Part shown: positions 897 to 55,439 of the stretch, piece by piece
Layout: each line of letters starts with the position of its first letter
How positions within the stretch are numbered: the stretch's first letter is position 1
Translations under genes and position numbers: made by a program
DNA from: an uncultured Candidatus Saccharibacteria bacterium
Lineage (GTDB): Bacteria > Patescibacteriota > Minisyncoccia > UBA6257 > UBA9933
Direction: 5' to 3'
NCBI GenBank assembly: GCA_964642155.1
Contig: CAZXNT010000001.1
Location: 65,238-129,237, forward strand
DNA: 64,000 nucleotides
Notes under the pieces: generated by a model
Database searches by the model: none
Seen by the model: only the letters and a program-made list of their open reading frames with translations
Told to the model about the DNA's origin: nothing

Positions 897-3137
897 TTAT
901 GGAGTGGGTGCGGTAGCCGCGGTAGCCATGGTTGAAGGCGCTCCTCCTTCAAATATTCTGAAATTTTTAAAAATAGTTTGGATGTCTTTTTTGTCGAGAT
1001 TGGGATTTGCGTTTTCAAAATCGGCTTGAAAATTATTTACTACTTTATAACCTCCCATATTGGGCAACATTGAAGAAATAATAGCAAAATTATGGCCGAG
1101 AGCGATGGAAATTTGTTTAGCTAATGATTTTTCATCGCTGTCCCTAATTCCCAAATTGCCATAAATTCTTTTAAGAGCTTTACCGATATCAGCGGCATCG
1201 GATTTTTTAAGCCCTCCATAAAATTTCTTCGCTGCGACTGCAAATTCTTTGCTATCTGTGCCATGTTCCTTACGTGCATTAACCATTTCATTTGATTCTC
1301 CTATTTTTTTCTCAACAGCATTAAAATCCATTTTACTTCTTGCATAAAGATTCTTTATTGAATCAGGTATAAGATTATTTTTCAGCCAATTATGTTTTGC
1401 TAGGTCGTCGTCCCTTATATCTTCATATTTACCAGTTCCCCTTTCTCCTACTTTAGTTTGAATTTTCCTTCCTGTTGGAACTTTTATTTTATTTCCTTTA
1501 TCATCAGTCAAATTCGATTCTCGCATCTCATCAGTCTCTTCCATTATAGGCTCCATTATTTCTTCTCTTCTTATTCCTCCAGGAATATTTACTTTGGGAA
1601 GATTATTTAATATATGCTCGCTTAATGCCACCTTCCGCCCGCCAGGCATCAACATACTATCACTTGATAATTGAGCCATTGTTTGAGCCATTGTTAATTT
1701 TGACACTTCACTCTTATATCTTTCAGGTTCTCTTTCAGCAGGAGCGGATAAATTTGCCAGAGTACGAGCTTTAAGTCCATAATAATATCTTCCGAGCATG
1801 CTCCTGGATTTATCAGAGGCCTTTTCAGACGCTTCTATTGATTTATCTCCCCACTTCGCCGCGCCTGCTAATCGACTATATCCACCACGAAGACCACCCA
1901 ATGTTTTCCTCCCCGCCCACGCGCCGGCGCCTTTGCCGGCTTTTTGCGCCAGATTCATTGCTATATTCGCTCCGACAATACCCATTAAATTTGCCACATA
2001 AAGTCCGCCCAACATAAAACCAATTAAAATTAACATACTGCCAACATTTTCTAAAAATCCTTGCTGTCTAAATGTTCCACTCAAAACTTTTTGGACGTCC
2101 GCTTCTTTGAGTATTGGCATAAACTCAATTGATTTAATTGATAAATACATAAAAAAAGACATTACTGGCATAAAAAAAGTCCATCGCAAAAAATTATCCC
2201 ACCACTTCTTCCATAAATGTTGCGTTGACGGTAAAATCCAACACAACCAAGCTAAAGGCGACAAAACCAAAATAAATCCCAATGCCACATATCTTATTAA
2301 AAGCATTACAAAAGTTGCGAGTAAGGTAAGAACTCCTAAAAAGCTGAAAATTACGGAAAAAAATAGACTAGCAATCATAGTTAAAAATTCTGTGCTTAAG
2401 TTATCAAAACCCCCTTTTTCTTTTGCTGCTGTAAGTGCTGTATTCAAGTCACATTTACATGTAAATTCCGCTAAAATTCCAGCTCGCCAAGTACTAGCTC
2501 TTTTTGTTGTACCTTCTTCTGCTCTTAAACATGCCCCATTTGTCGAATCTACAAAATTCTCTTCTATCCAATTACAATTTTCATCGCCAACATTCATCAA
2601 CCGTTGATTATTAAAAACTGACCCTAAAGTATCGGCTGCTGTTCGTGGACCTAATTTACTCGCGTCTTGAAAATATTTTGCCGTGATATCAGACACACTA
2701 ATAAACGCACCGGCAATCACCAAGCTAAAATTCACTAAAAGCGCGGTGACAATCAATTTCCAAAGAGTTTGTTTTATGGCGTAATTTTCCAAGCGAAAAA
2801 TTGTGGCAAAAGCGATAATAATAATCGCCAAAACAAAACCGAGATTAGCAAAATTTAAAACTATATCCCAACCAACTCTAACTGCTTGGTTATTTAAAAT
2901 CCCTTCGTTAAAACCTATCGCCCATTGCACTAAATATGCGCTGAGGGCAAAAAATACTCCTCCAATAAAACCGATTATATAATTTAAAATATATGTCGTG
3001 AATCCGATTGCGCCGCTTAAAATATAATCCATACCATCTGCATGCGCTTCTTCCGGAACAAGCACAACAATAATCGCAACTATTGCAATTAACACCGTCA
3101 ACCCTATTTTTTTATTTTTTAAAAAATAAAAAGTCAT
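897..3137 (-). CDS. polytopic membrane protein with VirB6/TrbL-like topology and a ~330-aa hydrophilic C-terminal extension
   Basis: Signal peptide followed by at least six hydrophobic helices, a Cys-containing loop of about 130 aa, and a long charged tail. It overlaps the upstream gene by 4 bp, indicating an operon. The family assignment rests on topology only. Confidence 0.35.
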   Translation of the reverse strand: MTFYFLKNKKIGLTVLIAIVAIIVVLVPEEAHADGMDYILSGAIGFTTYILNYIIGFIGGVFFALSAYLVQWAIGFNEGILNNQAVRVGWDIVLNFANLGFVLAIIIIAFATIFRLENYAIKQTLWKLIVTALLVNFSLVIAGAFISVSDITAKYFQDASKLGPRTAADTLGSVFNNQRLMNVGDENCNWIEENFVDSTNGACLRAEEGTTKRASTWRAGILAEFTCKCDLNTALTAAKEKGGFDNLSTEFLTMIASLFFSVIFSFLGVLTLLATFVMLLIRYVALGFILVLSPLAWLCWILPSTQHLWKKWWDNFLRWTFFMPVMSFFMYLSIKSIEFMPILKEADVQKVLSGTFRQQGFLENVGSMLILIGFMLGGLYVANLMGIVGANIAMNLAQKAGKGAGAWAGRKTLGGLRGGYSRLAGAAKWGDKSIEASEKASDKSRSMLGRYYYGLKARTLANLSAPAEREPERYKSEVSKLTMAQTMAQLSSDSMLMPGGRKVALSEHILNNLPKVNIPGGIRREEIMEPIMEETDEMRESNLTDDKGNKIKVPTGRKIQTKVGERGTGKYEDIRDDDLAKHNWLKNNLIPDSIKNLYARSKMDFNAVEKKIGESNEMVNARKEHGTDSKEFAVAAKKFYGGLKKSDAADIGKALKRIYGNLGIRDSDEKSLAKQISIALGHNFAIISSMLPNMGGYKVVNNFQADFENANPNLDKKDIQTIFKNFRIFEGGAPSTMATAATAPTP

Positions 3138-50314: not shown

Positions 50315-50710
50315 CTATAAGATTTTTGAATACTCTTGATAATTTTTTCTTACCACCGCTTTCCAACTTGCGGTTTCGTTTTCACCCCCTAAATCATTTT
50401 TACTATATACCAATAAAACACGGACGGTTGAAGTGTGTTTATGAACAGCGATAATGCACCTATTGCCGGAAGCGTGTCTAGACTCTTGAGTTCCATGCAC
50501 ACGGAACTCTGTTTTGCAAACCCTTACATCCCCAGCTTCAGTAATGGTTTCTGCTATGTTTGTTTGCCCGATCAATGTATCAATGCGCTTAAACTCCTCG
50601 TGCATAGCAGTCCAAGTTACATCCCATGCCCCTTTATGCTTCTTTTTAAATTTAGAGATAAAGTGTCGTTCCGCGTATCGTTCTATAATAACCGTATAAT
50701 TAGTAAACAT
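50315..50710 (-). CDS. putative toxin partner of the HTH-Panacea antitoxin (family not recognised)
   Basis: 131-aa ORF overlapping the upstream antitoxin-like gene by 11 bp. GC-rich relative to its surroundings. Confidence 0.4.
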   Translation of the reverse strand: MFTNYTVIIERYAERHFISKFKKKHKGAWDVTWTAMHEEFKRIDTLIGQTNIAETITEAGDVRVCKTEFRVHGTQESRHASGNRCIIAVHKHTSTVRVLLVYSKNDLGGENETASWKAVVRKNYQEYSKIL

Positions 50711-51377
50711 AATCGGGGTCCTGTTGAGTTATCAATTCATACGGAATCATTTCATCTGGAGCGCAGAGTTTGTAGGGTAACTGTTCGTGAGTAAAATCAA
50801 TAATTTCTTGAGTTCTTTTATTTTTCCACTTTGTGGATATTTTTTTCATTAAATTAACTTCTTCGGTTTTAAGAAAATCAAGTTTTTGGTGTTGCGCGCC
50901 CGCGCCAATAAGAATGGCGCCACCCTTATAATCAACAGTTATTTTCCCTTCCTCCTCAAGCTCTGCAAGCGCTCTGAAATACGAATCGGGCACAGGACCA
51001 TACGTTCGGCGCAAATATTGCATCCCGCTCATACTCTCAAGATTCGTGTAATACCACGCGAAATCAGCCAAATAGAGAAGCTTGGCTAATTTAGTTTTTG
51101 GAACTTTTCCGTCAGTAGAAATTGAAGATTTAAGAAAAGCAATAATCATTTGCTTATATTTTTCATACTTTGGCAAAGTGGCTTTTGCAAATTCTTCGAT
51201 AGAAATGCCGAACAGATTTTTTAACTTCTGCGCTTCATCTAGGGTGAGACCCCTGTTCCCGCGCTCAATGGCTACATATGAAGGACGGGAAAGCCCCAAT
51301 TTATCCGCGACAAAAGACTGCGAAAAATCCCGCTCTGTTCGAAGAGCTTTTATAAATTGCGCATATTTATTAATCAT
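50700..51377 (-). CDS. HTH (XRE-family) plus Panacea/DUF4065-domain protein, putative antitoxin
   Basis: N-terminal Cro/C1-type HTH (FVADKLGLSRPSYVAIERG). C-terminal KLAKLLYLADFAWYY resembles the DUF4065 signature. Confidence 0.55.
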   Translation of the reverse strand: MINKYAQFIKALRTERDFSQSFVADKLGLSRPSYVAIERGNRGLTLDEAQKLKNLFGISIEEFAKATLPKYEKYKQMIIAFLKSSISTDGKVPKTKLAKLLYLADFAWYYTNLESMSGMQYLRRTYGPVPDSYFRALAELEEEGKITVDYKGGAILIGAGAQHQKLDFLKTEEVNLMKKISTKWKNKRTQEIIDFTHEQLPYKLCAPDEMIPYELITQQDPDYVY

Positions 51378-51481: not shown

Positions 51482-52294
51482 TCATGGACGCCCTAGTGGA
51501 AATGCCCGAGGCGCAAATGCCCTTATGTTTGCCCCTCCTACCCCTTTTGCGCGCACAGAGAAACGCTCCCGTCCTTTCAAACTATACTTAAAAACATCGT
51601 TCACTTCTCGAATATTTTTATTTGCTTCTTTTACATATATAGGTTGAACTTCTGTTCCTAAATAATTTCTTCTATGTAATAAAGCAGCTACGGCAGTGGA
51701 ACCCGAACCCATAAATGGGTCCAAAATAGTATCTCCTTCTTTGCTGAAAAGTCGCATGAACCACGAAGGTAATTCAATTGGAAAAACAGCGCTATGATTT
51801 TTTCTCGAAGAGGATTCGACAGCTGATTCAAATATATTACTCAAATACAATCTATGTTCTTCTTCAAAAACTATTACATTATGCGGGAAAACCTTTTTCT
51901 TATTAAGCCAATTTGAAACATTGCGACCTAAATGAGAATTGTTTTTAGAAATGTGTCTGACAAAATCATTTTCGCTCATTGATTTAAAACGCTTCTCTGC
52001 CCAGCTCCCAATTGGAACCTTAACCGCATCTTGATACATTTTGAAATCTTTTTGCTTTGTGAATTGTAAACAACATTCCCATGAATCACGAAACCGATTG
52101 GGCCATTTTCCAGGGAATGAATTTTTCTTATACCAACAATACTCTTCGATCCAAAACCATCCTTGCTTTTTCAATTCCAAAATTAACTCCAGAACATAAG
52201 TTTCTCGCTCACCATTTTTGGGATGTTCTTTTATATTGAGAATAAATAAACCATCGTCTTTTAGTACTCTGTAAAGTTCTTTTGTGATCGGCAA
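51482..52294 (-). pseudogene. N-4/N-6 DNA methyltransferase (PF01555-like), N-terminally truncated and lacking the DPPY motif
   Basis: C-terminal SAM motif DPFMGSGSTAVAA and RVLKDDG block are present. The frame is closed by an upstream stop about 30 codons before TTG, with no DPPY/NPPY. The sortase gene's 3' end occupies the expected N-terminal coding region. Confidence 0.5.
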
Positions 52295-52371: not shown

Positions 52372-53007
52372 TTATTCTTTATCAGTAAAAACTATGAGTC
52401 GATCAGAACGAGTTTTCTCGGCCTTATTCCAAACTCCCGCGCAAGTAATAAGGTTAAGGTGCGCTTTTCCGTCACTTGAACCAAATACATCCGAGGCATC
52501 CGCGTTCTTGTCATATCTCCGAATTTCGCGCACAACAAAAGTAACAATCGCCCCTTTTTCATTTTCAATATACATTTTATCACCTTTGCGTATTTTATGT
52601 AAATTATCAAATACTGCCGGTATATCATTTTTCCAGCCATAGTGCCCGGCAATAACAGAACTTCCGTTTTCTCCGGGGCGCGGGCCGAGATTAAACCACG
52701 CTACCCCAATAGGACCTTTAGGCACGTCCATTGCTCCGTCGGATGTAAGACCTACATACTCGACGGAGGCATCAACCTTTATACTTGGAATTTTGAGATG
52801 CACCGGAAGTCCCATACCCCCTTGTTGCTGGGTCAGTATTTGGGATAATTGCTGCTGAAGCTGGACTATCTGTTGTTGAATCTGGGTAATTAATGTTTGA
52901 AGTTGGCTGTCAGTCATTCGCTGAGCCTTTACGACAAGGTTCGGCGATAATAAAAAAAACACTACTATAAATAATAAGATTGATAAACTCTTTCGGAAAA
53001 ATTTCAT
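52372..53007 (-). CDS. sortase (TLITC active site) with N-terminal TM and Gln-rich coiled coil
   Basis: Catalytic His (VIAGHYGW), Cys (LNLITCAG) and Arg (TRSDRLIVF). Signal-anchor MKFFRKSLSILLFIVVFFLL. Confidence 0.75.
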   Translation of the reverse strand: MKFFRKSLSILLFIVVFFLLSPNLVVKAQRMTDSQLQTLITQIQQQIVQLQQQLSQILTQQQGGMGLPVHLKIPSIKVDASVEYVGLTSDGAMDVPKGPIGVAWFNLGPRPGENGSSVIAGHYGWKNDIPAVFDNLHKIRKGDKMYIENEKGAIVTFVVREIRRYDKNADASDVFGSSDGKAHLNLITCAGVWNKAEKTRSDRLIVFTDKE

Positions 53008-53113
53008 ATTTTTATAGTTTAATTACTTTATTTATTATACTACAACCAAAAACTACTCATAAAAGGTGGCTATAGAAAATACGCAGGCAAAAGAAGAAAA
53101 AGATAACTAATAC

Positions 53114-54355
53114 CTACTTAACACTAGGAGGAAAACCTGTATTTGGCAGTTTTATCATTGCTGAGAGTTGAGCTTGAAGTAATTGTACTAATTGCTGCAT
53201 CAGAGGAATGAGCTGTTGTTTAATCTGGTTAATCTGGGCTAAAATCTGCTGGTTTGATACAGGTGTCGGTGTCGGTGTCGGAGCTACTGTTAGTACAACC
53301 ACAGGAGTTGAGGTTGGTGTTGGTGTTGGGGTAGGGGTAGGGGTAGGTGTTGGTGTTGGTTGGGTAACATTAACCACCACACTGTTCGACGCACCAGCAC
53401 AATTTATTGAATACGTTGTATTTGATGTCGGTGAAACGCTAACACTTCCTGAAATAGCATTTCCTGTTGAGAAGTTGGTACCAGAACAACTTGCCGCATT
53501 TGAGCTTGACCACGATAGGGTTGACGAATTACCACTTATGATTGAGGTTGGATTTGCTGAAATTGTTGCTGTTGGGGTTGGTGGTGGAGTAACGGCAACA
53601 ATTGGCTTGGTAACAGTGTTTGCATCTAACGTAGCTGCGGTCTGTGCGAGTGCCCTGCCGTTTAGCGTTGCACCGGTGTTCAGCACAATTGCTGTTTGAT
53701 CCAATATATTTCCATTAAAGACAGCTGTCGTTCCAAGTGTCGTTTGGCCAGCAACCTGCCAGAAGATGTTAGCGGCCTGCGCACCGCCACTCAGGACAAC
53801 CTGCACAGCGGAACTCACAGTGAGATTTTGCGCTATCTGAAATATCCAAACATCATTGGCACCGCCCGAGAGAGTGACATTCGTTGGTATTGTCACGCCG
53901 GTACTCCATTTATAAAGTCCCGGAGCTAATGTCATTCCGCCAATATTTCCCGCACCCAATTCAGTCGCAGTCGGATTTGTTCTCCCCGCGGCATCAGTGT
54001 ACGCGGTTTCCATGTCACTTACCGCTGTAGTCATTGTAGCTGGAGTAGGAGCCGTATAGTCGGCTGCATATACTTTTCCGGTTACTATGGCTGATGTCGA
54101 AAATGTATTCGAAGCGTCCAGTATTAATCCGAATCCAGTTATGGCAGTCGCGGCGATTGGGCTCACTCCAATATCTCCAGTAATTGAGGTATTTCCGGTG
54201 GTTGAGATCCCCGACTTCGTTAGAATCACGAAATTGCCTGCTGATCCGAGATTTACTGTCGCTGGACCTGCAGCAAGCACAGCCATTGGCCCGGTGAGAC
54301 CAAACATAAATGCAAGACCTAATACAACCACTAAACCCTTGTTAAATTTTTTCAT
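53114..54355 (-). CDS. surface protein with DUF3494 (ice-binding-like) domain, Ig-like domain, PT linker, Gln-rich coiled coil and C-terminal LPNTG
   Basis: LGSAGNFVILTKSGISTTGNTSITGDIGVSP matches the DUF3494 signature. (PT)n linker. The ORF ends KLPNTGFPPSVK. Confidence 0.7.
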   Translation of the reverse strand: MKKFNKGLVVVLGLAFMFGLTGPMAVLAAGPATVNLGSAGNFVILTKSGISTTGNTSITGDIGVSPIAATAITGFGLILDASNTFSTSAIVTGKVYAADYTAPTPATMTTAVSDMETAYTDAAGRTNPTATELGAGNIGGMTLAPGLYKWSTGVTIPTNVTLSGGANDVWIFQIAQNLTVSSAVQVVLSGGAQAANIFWQVAGQTTLGTTAVFNGNILDQTAIVLNTGATLNGRALAQTAATLDANTVTKPIVAVTPPPTPTATISANPTSIISGNSSTLSWSSSNAASCSGTNFSTGNAISGSVSVSPTSNTTYSINCAGASNSVVVNVTQPTPTPTPTPTPTPTPTSTPVVVLTVAPTPTPTPVSNQQILAQINQIKQQLIPLMQQLVQLLQAQLSAMIKLPNTGFPPSVK

Positions 54356-54454: not shown

Positions 54455-54500
54455 ATTATAGTTTACCCCCCCCCCCGATAATTTTGCAATGTGTATTAAG
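54455..54500 (-). promoter_or_regulatory. candidate promoter with a G12 homopolymer (C12 on the plus strand, 54466-54477) between a TTGCAA -35-like hexamer and a perfect TATAAT
   Basis: Minus-strand read: TTGCAA aattatc G12 taaac TATAAT, about 95 nt upstream of the start of 53114..54355. Confidence 0.45.
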
Positions 54501-54923: not shown

Positions 54924-55439
54924 TTAATTAAAGCGAAGCTTTATATACGCCACGTCGCTGGGCTGAGGAGAATAAGAAATTTTCATATCAATCCGCCATT
55001 TGACAGATTTAAAAGTGTCTTTGATTTTTTTGGCAATTTTTACGGCAAGTTGGTTTTCGGTAACGGTTATCGTCATTTCGCTTTTATTTTTTTTAACGGC
55101 AATCAGCCTGTCCATCGGGTCGCGTTCATAAGCCCGCCGGCCGAATGTCATTATTAAATGTTCAATTTCGCTGAAAATTTCAGAAGGAATGTTTTTAATA
55201 ATAATCTCTCCCTCAAACTGTCTGTTTTTAATCATCTTGCAAGCCGGACATAAAGAAAATTTAATGGGCAAATTTTCGCGGAGATTTTTATAATTTCGCA
55301 AATTGTGATGCCAAGATTTTTTATAATAAACCGCGTTGCAATCTTTGCAAAAAACCAAACCCAGTTTCCCTTTTGGTAATTCACGCTCTTCTGTTCGCGG
55401 CAAAATTATTTTATTGTCATATTGTTTGCGCCTTTCCAT
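54924..55439 (-). CDS. hypothetical zinc-ribbon protein (CKDC...CPAC)
   Basis: Two CxxC pairs. The start codon abuts MITE copy 3. Confidence 0.4.
   Translation of the reverse strand: MERRKQYDNKIILPRTEERELPKGKLGLVFCKDCNAVYYKKSWHHNLRNYKNLRENLPIKFSLCPACKMIKNRQFEGEIIIKNIPSEIFSEIEHLIMTFGRRAYERDPMDRLIAVKKNKSEMTITVTENQLAVKIAKKIKDTFKSVKWRIDMKISYSPQPSDVAYIKLRFN

Follow-up and report, generated by a model that had tools for sequence, protein, structure and literature searches.

How can a sortase act on a surface protein that carries a sorting motif and no membrane tail behind it? In a canonical sorting signal, both a hydrophobic stretch and a tail with positive charges are required (reviewed in PMC8225981). 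The question is raised by two neighbouring genes on the minus strand of a 64-kb stretch of DNA (64,000 nucleotides; contig CAZXNT010000001.1 of assembly GCA_964642155.1, positions 65,238 to 129,237), here called the window. They encode a DUF3494 protein, regarded as the substrate, and downstream of it a sortase. The substrate ends shortly after LPNTG, the sortase has a short signal-peptide-like N-terminus where its relatives have a long membrane anchor, and both carry a Gln-rich segment. An initial annotation, made from the letters alone, had recognized the pair and proposed that the TAG codon at 53114-53116 separates the motif from a hydrophobic tail still encoded behind it. The analysis reported here arrives at a different answer: The tail-less signal together with a Gln-helix sortase looks like an apparently undescribed variant of protein sorting and not like a broken gene. 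With moderate confidence, the locus is interpreted as an operon of two intact genes for surface display in a Patescibacteria (candidate phyla radiation, CPR) bacterium, in which the usual sortase system has been varied.

The substrate and its C-terminal module

The substrate gene (53114..54355, minus strand) is an open reading frame (ORF) of 413 amino acids (aa) and lies upstream of the sortase gene (52372..53007, minus strand, 211 aa). Both genes are located where the initial annotation had put them, and both family assignments were confirmed by Pfam: The substrate matches Ice_binding/DUF3494 (PF11999) with 270.3 bits (cutoff 28.7, E 1.4e-80), and the sortase matches PF04203 with 78.6 bits over residues 71-209 (cutoff 26.6, E 4.4e-22). 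The term adhesin is an assumption for DUF3494 proteins of groundwater and soil CPR bacteria such as the substrate. A signal peptide (residues 1-28) is followed by a DUF3494/ice-binding-like beta-helix (44-249), an immunoglobulin-like (Ig-like) beta domain (~264-331) and a Pro/Thr linker (332-365). In the AlphaFold2 model, which was computed from a 46-sequence alignment and has a mean predicted local distance difference test (pLDDT) score of 73, the beta-helix reaches 85-95, strands are predicted for 264-331 and the linker is disordered. In addition, a long alpha-helix (105-125) is predicted to flank the beta-helix.

The linker leads into a Gln/Leu/Ile-rich amphipathic helix (residues 368-400; 53156..53254, minus strand) assigned from AlphaFold2 and the heptad register. 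It is modelled as a single long helix with a pLDDT of ~89-92 and ends 2 residues ahead of the sortase recognition motif LPNTG (residues 403-407; 53135..53149, minus strand), which lies in an unstructured tail. The motif is followed by the six residues FPPSVK and the stop codon (together 53114..53134, minus strand). The protein ends ...KLPNTGFPPSVK / ...SAMIKLPNTGFPPSVK directly before the TAG, as initially annotated, and no hydrophobic or Arg/Lys-rich segment follows. Hence, LPXTG is present and two of the three features of a canonical signal, the hydrophobic stretch and the charged tail, are absent. Instead of an Arg/Lys cluster, the window protein has one terminal Lys, and other members end in GQ, SQ, SY or PN. 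None of the LPXTG-anchor models of NCBIfam matched the substrate at E <= 1.

Across 16 aligned modules, the helix consensus NQQLIAQIKQQLIPLIxQLIQxLQAQLSAM is conserved; in the full module it stands between the Pro/Thr linker and xA-LPNTG, after which 2-8 variable residues complete the protein. All nine aligned modules that bear the motif agree in P, N, T and G while the tail residues vary, which suggests that the motif is under selection. Its strict conservation, together with a dedicated sortase encoded next door, speaks for a motif that is still in use. In a six-frame translation of the 64 kb, the substrate is the only LPXTG-ended ORF, and just two Gln-rich helices of this type were found, one in the substrate and one in the sortase.

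A different C-terminus, QQLGPITISKPLNQMTRDELxNTLLRLxLTLIMQGKLTHL without LPXTG, occurs in about 10 Patescibacteria DUF3494 proteins among 120 listed homologues (P0072, P0074, P0087-P0089, P0092, P0094, P0095, P0098 and P0103). It may be another, uncharacterised anchoring module.

The sortase and its N-terminus

The catalytic domain of the sortase comprises residues ~67-211. His122, Cys189 and Arg203 are invariant across 11 related sortases (alignment A3) and correspond to the His-Cys-Arg triad by which sortases are defined (PMC8225981). The His and the Arg had been recognized initially, but the motif around the Cys is HLNLITC and not TLITC as annotated. The best NCBIfam class is class F (NF033748; 124.3 bits, E 3.3e-36), and the score for class C is much weaker (E 1.1e-11). 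The enzyme is termed class-F-like, as class F is its best class and the score is nevertheless below the curated cutoff of 166. The protein terminates directly after the catalytic domain (...RLIVFTDKE).

The N-terminus (MKFFRKSLSILLFIVVFFLLSPNLVVKA before Q; 52924..53007, minus strand) is composed of a 15-residue apolar run, a Pro and a V-x-A site before Q. It is followed by a Gln-rich amphipathic helix (residues 33-60; 52828..52911, minus strand), predicted by AlphaFold2 and the heptad register, that ends ~6 residues before the catalytic domain. The helix has a pLDDT of 71-79 in a model that is of low confidence as a whole (mean 60.9, 11-sequence alignment). A Gln-rich N-terminal helix is found in 11 of the 120 closest sortases including that of the window. 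These eleven N-termini read MKFFRKSLSxLLFxxVFFLLSPNxVVRA, then QQMTDSQRQTLITQIQQQIVQLQQQLSQILxQQQ, and continue straight into the catalytic domain. The other 109 have a long hydrophobic anchor and a non-repetitive linker of 20-50 residues, e.g. MQSKILSKRTLLLVVILSGLTLFITLLLYFIPKSS. The apolar run measures 14-16 residues in 9/9 Gln-type sortases compared to a median of 19 in 104 membrane-anchored relatives. The Pro and a VxA-type site before Q are present in all nine, and a similar site was found in one of the 109 anchored enzymes. This means, the N-terminus looks like a cleavable signal peptide, unlike the long membrane anchor of the relatives, and from its residues we infer that it is cleaved.

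Three observations concern this N-terminal region and its relatives. Residues 11-62 (~52822-52977), which include the hydrophobic segment and the Gln helix, match two NCBIfam models weakly and below cutoff: the HpsJ family with 28.9 bits and an HpsJ-like, cyanoexosortase A-associated protein with 17.2 bits. These are probably compositional, although they point to another family associated with a sorting enzyme. In locus L093 (Ga0187854_10085832, ~1007-1497), a signal-peptide-like segment and a Gln helix (MKFFRKNLITLLFIMVFCFGVTGLIVKAQQMTDAQRQALIAQIQQQIIQLQQQL...) precede a PG_binding_1 domain (Pfam E 1.1e-6), so the N-terminal module is portable. In L100 (1071-1790, P0123), a Gln-type sortase has the segment after EKTR (RSDRLIVFTDKE in the window) exchanged for a charged extension of 36 residues (TKRQLTEEEEKIVKQLRKDLDDAEKFVRKEIEDIEKEVK); decay of this copy or a frameshift may be the cause.

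A genuine stop codon

The suggestion of a separated tail has a real basis. Past the TAG, the reading frame continues for 18 codons (VLVIFFFFCLRIFYSHLL) up to a TGA. This continuation is hydrophobic and has an Arg as initially described, except that RISY in that description should read RIFY. With a Kyte-Doolittle mean of 3.42, the hydrophobic 10-mer is second of 58 post-stop stretches, and 0.3% of random 20-codon windows attain such a value. Moreover, true stranded tails exist: In L073 (184-1227), the ORF ends FPNTGLPPRGSSTP before its stop, and a hydrophobic segment of 25 residues plus an Arg follows in the +2 frame, the result of either a frameshift or an error in the assembly. In the window, LPNTG could in principle be cut from a tail VLVIFFFFCLR at 53114-53116 by a recent nonsense mutation, by programmed readthrough or by a sequencing error. 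However, the hydrophobic run comprises 10 residues compared to ~20 in canonical relatives such as L012, and it is conserved in no orthologue.

A sequencing error is ruled out, since two other, independent assemblies (L004 and L005; SRR13723397 and SRR13723393) are identical in sequence and have the same TAG and downstream DNA. Reassignment or suppression of the codon is ruled out, too: All three stops are used in the window (39 TAA, 12 TGA, 8 TAG), which conforms to the standard code, its five tRNAs are all ordinary, and a suppressor tRNA was not found in the 64 kb.

The orthologues provide the decisive comparison. At 67-85% DNA identity, they stop in register with the window TAG in the spacer alignment. 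In nine loci, the substrate ends 2-8 residues beyond (L/M/T)PNTG. The final residues before the stop are LPNTGFSPSGK in L006, LPNTGLHSSVK in L008, LPNTGISPN in L092, LPNTGLSPIIK in L094, LPNTGVGQ in L095, TPNTGFSPN in L096, LPNTGFSQ in L001 and LPNTGFPSGVNK in L100. The same short ending is found in the database proteins P0048, P0049, P0051 and P0099. The initial annotation had itself named orthologues ending right after LPNTG as evidence against a lost tail; all nine loci are of this kind and none has an intact C-terminal anchor.

The 106-nt T-rich spacer between the two genes (53008..53113, minus strand) is non-coding. In none of the 8 spacers examined can a membrane segment be encoded in any frame. 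Compared to the closest orthologue L006, the window has a 1-nt indel just after the TAG (spacer alignment A6), so that the DNA reading VLVIFFFFCLRIFYSHLL in the window lies in another frame in L006 and the spacer evolves as non-coding DNA. The same alignment reveals large insertions in L008 and L096. In L006, L094, L096 and L100, further stops follow at once (Asp and a stop, or two stops in a row). Consequently, the TAG is genuine and the tail-less signal is conserved. The hydrophobic read-out is a by-product of the T-rich spacer, and a tail stranded by mutation, error or readthrough, which the orthologues refute, is regarded as extremely improbable.

The spacers have a further property. In L006, L008, L092 and L096, a hairpin CCACC-TTTTATG-GGTGG is followed by TTTTT and a -10-like element TGGTATAAT, corresponding to 53030-53075 in the window. 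The hairpin resembles a weak terminator, and TGGTATAAT behind it resembles an extended -10 promoter from which the sortase gene would be transcribed. In the window these elements are degenerate, with AGTAG replacing GGTGG and TAGTATAAT replacing TGGTATAAT, and a simple consensus scan of the window spacer found neither a terminator nor a minus-strand promoter.

Co-occurrence of the two modules

Nine distinct loci with a Gln-type sortase were compared (the window, L001, L006, L008, L092, L094, L095, L096 and L100) with the best 80 loci of GTDB species representatives, all of which have non-Gln sortases. In 9/9 Gln-type loci, the directly upstream gene on the same strand encodes a substrate with helix and short tail. 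Such a substrate was found in none of the 80 others, 59 of which have a canonical substrate with LPXTG and membrane tail. Fisher's exact test yields p = 1.6e-12 for this co-occurrence, a value that overstates independence because the loci are related. Among all 89 loci, none has just one of the two modules. Similarly, in L097, a membrane-anchored sortase is paired with a canonical-tail substrate.

The Gln type is rare or absent in species representatives, as judged from the best 80 GTDB loci. A metagenome scan with the sortase N-terminal module detected at least three loci. The profile of the C-terminal module yielded 7 matches in a representative library of 1.8 billion and 4 in a word-indexed search; these counts do not give the true spread of the module, since the profile is short and of low complexity and is damped by the HMMER bias correction.

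A mosaic locus with a 467-bp cassette

The strongest evidence comes from the mosaic structure of the locus. Locus L012 (Patescibacteria bin H52-bin120_1) is canonical, and its sole part dissimilar to the window is a contiguous cassette of 467 bp at the junction of the two genes (52807..53273, minus strand). In blastn, two stretches of the window align with L012, 54511-53274 (84.5% identity) and 52806-52368 (85.9%), with no match between them. The cassette starts with substrate residues ~362-413 (helix, LPNTG, tail and stop) and continues through the spacer into residues 1-67 of the sortase, which comprise the signal-peptide-like segment and the Gln helix. At the protein level, the substrates are 89% identical over residues 1-337 and the sortases 81% over residues 60-211, and the ends that face each other are replaced: The L012 substrate ends ...PKLPNTGIGPDEKSIPWNIVIPAGIFAVSIFFYLARRKQTI, and the L012 sortase starts with a long anchor.

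The comparison with L006 places a breakpoint at the same position. L006 matches window 53274-52373 at 85.4% and the signal-peptide/promoter region 54498-54269 at 82.6%, and its passenger is unmatched. The breakpoints in L012 and L006 coincide at window position 53274, in the Pro/Thr linker. The L006 passenger has a different DUF3494 subtype and a SpaA_2 domain (~36% identical overall), whereas the ends are conserved (22 of 28 signal peptide residues identical, C-terminal module ~80% identical). According to a distance analysis, the catalytic domain of the window sortase is closest to those of the membrane-anchored P0128, P0129 and P0135 and not to the other Gln-type enzymes, and the Gln-type sortases form no single group by catalytic domain. 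Given these differing passengers and catalytic backgrounds, the cassette has been joined to different backgrounds, both halves always together. It has mosaic boundaries, and the helix modules are inherited and exchanged as one 0.47-kb unit.

The passenger, too, appears to have been swapped as a cassette between conserved ends (window 53275-54268 versus L006 1753-2743). In L008, the passenger is 84% identical to that of the window and lacks the Ig-like domain (256-340).

Likeness of the two helices

The Gln/Leu-rich segments quoted in the initial annotation are present in both proteins (substrate residues 367-395, sortase residues 35-62). In ungapped scoring, enzyme and substrate helices align above composition-matched shuffles in 8/8 pairs (z 2.7-5.8). 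Each can be placed in a single heptad register, with NIIILLLLQA at the a/d positions of the substrate and DLIIILLIQ at those of the sortase. In one register, a/d positions are ~80% apolar, and the hydrophobic moment exceeds that of shuffles (z 2.2-2.7). Both segments are predicted as single helices and would fit coiled-coil geometry. The helices share composition and heptad pattern; homology is not claimed.

Docking by helices and alternative explanations

How could the two proteins meet? A conserved tail-less LPNTG and a dedicated sortase that also appears to lack a long anchor imply that another way to meet is needed. Both proteins would first be exported by Sec, and the signal peptide of the substrate would be cleaved. 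As the simplest explanation, the two helices could then form a parallel coiled coil, either as a heterodimer or as part of a larger bundle. The C-terminal end of each helix leads within 2-6 residues to the reacting part, LPNTG or the catalytic domain, so that docking would bring the Thr406-Gly407 bond to Cys189. In this way, helix docking would take over the role that membrane co-retention has for canonical substrates. Cleavage by the sortase would occur behind Thr406, and the protein would be passed on to an amine of the envelope, presumably on peptidoglycan. That a parallel coiled coil docks the substrate on its sortase and thereby replaces membrane retention is evenly balanced between right and wrong in our judgement, with both the physical docking and the identity of the acceptor being what we infer. 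The pairing of enzyme and substrate by their helices, already proposed in the initial annotation, has gained comparative support, since the helices always occur together and are exchanged within one 467-bp cassette; this falls short of proof. A wider proposal is more tentative: The locus might represent an undescribed mode of sortase targeting, in which the membrane-retention half of the signal and the anchor of the sortase are both replaced by matching Gln-rich helices that dock outside the membrane. The enzyme may be secreted and reside in the wall, and a single 0.47-kb cassette would switch both partners.

Several observations weigh against docking by a specific helix pair. The modules are less than 0.5 kb apart, so that linkage alone could hold them together in recombination, and the nine loci cannot be counted as independent events. 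With almost no charge, the helices offer no obvious ground for pairing specificity. A hidden Markov model of the substrate helices scored the sortase helices within the range of shuffles and was insignificant under the HMMER composition correction. Both modules are also found without their partner functions, the N-terminal one ahead of PG_binding_1 in L093 and the C-terminal helix without LPNTG in P0059, P0245, P0247 and P0248. Two loci are apparent exceptions. Just downstream of the sortase gene, L098 (586-849) encodes P0242, an 87-aa protein without a passenger, in which a signal peptide leads to the helix module and FPDTGFAPK. The 22 visible pre-catalytic residues of the L098 sortase are not Gln-rich, and its N-terminus lies beyond the contig end. 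In L063 (91-1950), a DUF3494+DUF7507 protein ends SLPNTGFPPEINQK before its stop, with the tail-less LPNTGFPPEINQK; it has neither a Gln helix nor, in any frame, a membrane segment. The nearby sortase (2467-3000) has a short signal-peptide-like N-terminus (MKKIISIVAAVSFSIFFVFFPVYHTSA followed by ASEPG) that leads straight into the catalytic domain, without a helix. Here, a tail-less protein without Gln helix stands near a helix-less sortase, and the absence of the tail in substrates may go along with the absence of the anchor in sortases in a more general way.

Some of these observations would be accommodated if the helices were independent modules for envelope association or oligomerisation, located on the membrane surface or in a coiled-coil scaffold shared with e.g. 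peptidoglycan-binding proteins. Sortase and substrate would be kept in the same layer without pairing one to one, and their co-occurrence would result from the shared scaffold and one physically linked cassette. The fusion to PG_binding_1, the helices without LPNTG and the tail-less substrates of L098 and L063 without an evident Gln-helix sortase agree with this explanation. In addition, hydrophobic residues occupy a, d and flanking positions, and such a wide apolar face is typical of higher-order bundles and interfacial helices. However, a scaffold leaves unexplained why the helices end 2 residues before LPNTG and ~6 before the catalytic domain, and why none of 89 loci has a single module. 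Furthermore, membrane-binding helices usually have Lys/Arg flanks, and the helices described here are almost uncharged. A scaffold role in place of docking is judged rather unlikely. An improbable alternative is that LPNTG is vestigial or serves release only, the protein being secreted or held non-covalently by its helix, and that the sortase acts on canonical substrates encoded elsewhere. Secretion is what classical theory predicts for a protein without membrane tail (PMC8225981), helix-only variants lacking LPNTG exist, and the view is limited to 64 kb of the genome, so that substrates may exist elsewhere. Yet P-N-T-G does not vary among modules that differ freely in the tail residues next to it, the order and adjacency of substrate and sortase genes are kept in 9/9 loci, the window contains no other LPXTG-ended ORF, and an anchor-less sortase would be poorly placed for membrane-tailed substrates.

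Polymerisation into pilus-like covalent fibres in place of wall-anchored monomers, in which Thr406 of one subunit would be joined to an amine in the helix or the body of its neighbour, is very improbable. Most modules have kept a Lys (QIKQQL) in a helix that otherwise carries no charge, and the best, albeit weak, PDB sequence match of the enzyme is a class C sortase (8t28, E 3.5e-7). Class C sortases, which have a signal peptide, are pilus polymerases. However, this Lys is replaced by Thr in L100 and by Arg in P0243, and the Thr in L100 led to the Lys being downgraded as a transpeptidation acceptor. A pilin motif, a second pilin gene and a C-terminal membrane anchor of the sortase are all absent, and class F scores far above class C in NCBIfam.

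Genome context and neighbouring genes

The window has a G+C content of 37%. Homologues are found in Patescibacteria/CPR metagenome bins, with Candidatus Staskawiczbacteria as the nearest relative that bears a name. Ahead of the substrate gene, ~110 nt from its ATG, a tract of eleven C on the plus strand (G11 on the gene strand, 54466-54476) lies between TTGCAA and TAAACTATAAT. It is the sole G/C homopolymer of at least 8 bases in the 64 kb. The aligned tract is G11 in L008 and G13 in L011, and it is interrupted in L012 (GAGGAGGGG) and L006 (GGGGTGGAG). This tract is a candidate for a slipped-strand, phase-variable promoter of the surface-protein operon.

Downstream of the sortase gene, an N6/N4 DNA methyltransferase gene (51482-52294) adjoins what is probably a toxin-antitoxin pair on the minus strand (50315-51377). 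The pair consists of a protein with HTH_3 and SocA_Panacea antitoxin domains (50700-51377) and an overlapping 131-aa protein (50315-50710), for which no Pfam match was obtained. On the other side, a 171-aa protein (54924-55439, minus strand) matches the NMD3 family (PF04981) with E 2.7e-7 and a score over the gathering threshold. Since NMD3 occurs mainly in eukaryotes and archaea, a bacterial match would be unusual.

Significance

Sortase biology builds on a tripartite signal of motif, membrane segment and charged tail, and the membrane segment is regarded as necessary for substrate and membrane-bound enzyme to meet. Deletion of the hydrophobic stretch and the charged tail by Schneewind et al. 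in 1992-93 reportedly caused protein A to be secreted instead of anchored. If the interpretation proposed here is true, a natural tail-less signal and an anchor-less sortase show that this requirement can be met otherwise. Surface display would thereby also be described for Patescibacteria, a group in which envelopes and host-attachment mechanisms have hardly been studied. A self-docking helix pair would be a ready affinity handle for sortagging, which is chiefly limited by weak substrate binding. Annotation pipelines that demand a hydrophobic tail will miss such sortase substrates. Furthermore, the cassette is an example of a single recombination event by which adjacent genes can exchange two putatively interacting modules at once. 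No literature on this sortase/DUF3494 architecture in Patescibacteria was found in a search that covered few subscription journals, and NCBIfam has no entry for it either.

Comparison with known systems

With the canonical LPXTG/SrtA paradigm of S. aureus, as presented in a review (Schneewind 1992, via PMC8225981), the locus shares a signal peptide on the substrate, a C-terminal LPXTG and a hydrophobic residue after the Gly. A His-Cys-Arg sortase is encoded beside its substrate in both cases, and the close relative L012 (84-86% DNA identity) is fully canonical. By contrast, the substrate described here has a 33-residue Gln-rich helix before the motif and lacks the hydrophobic segment and the charged tail. 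Canonical sortases have a membrane anchor of ~20 residues and a linker of 20-50 residues, whereas this enzyme has a short signal-peptide-like N-terminus and a helix of 28-30 residues.

Among the sortase classes, class F is the best-scoring one, and its LPXTG-type specificity, as reported for Cutibacterium acnes SrtF (Di Girolamo 2019, via PMC8225981), agrees with the motif. Close homologues of the enzyme are named class F sortase by NCBI. However, its score is below the cutoff, the N-terminal architecture is another one, and the host is a CPR bacterium rather than an actinobacterium. Class C sortases have a cleavable N-terminal signal peptide in place of an N-terminal anchor. The locus has its weak best PDB match in common with them; they keep a C-terminal membrane anchor and a lid and act on membrane-tailed pilins, whereas this enzyme stops directly behind its catalytic domain and has no pilin genes nearby.

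The substrate is a confident member of PF11999 with a predicted beta-helix like the DUF3494/ice-binding proteins. In contrast to true ice-binding proteins, it remains under the cutoff of the equivalog IBP_CFB (NF045625; 254.4 bits, cutoff 400). Finally, an analogy can be drawn to cohesin-dockerin pairs and to leader-peptide recognition in ribosomally synthesised and post-translationally modified peptides (RiPPs), where a portable recognition module near the processed site joins substrate and enzyme. Those modules are unrelated in sequence and fold to the ones described here, which are putative Gln-rich coiled-coil helices.

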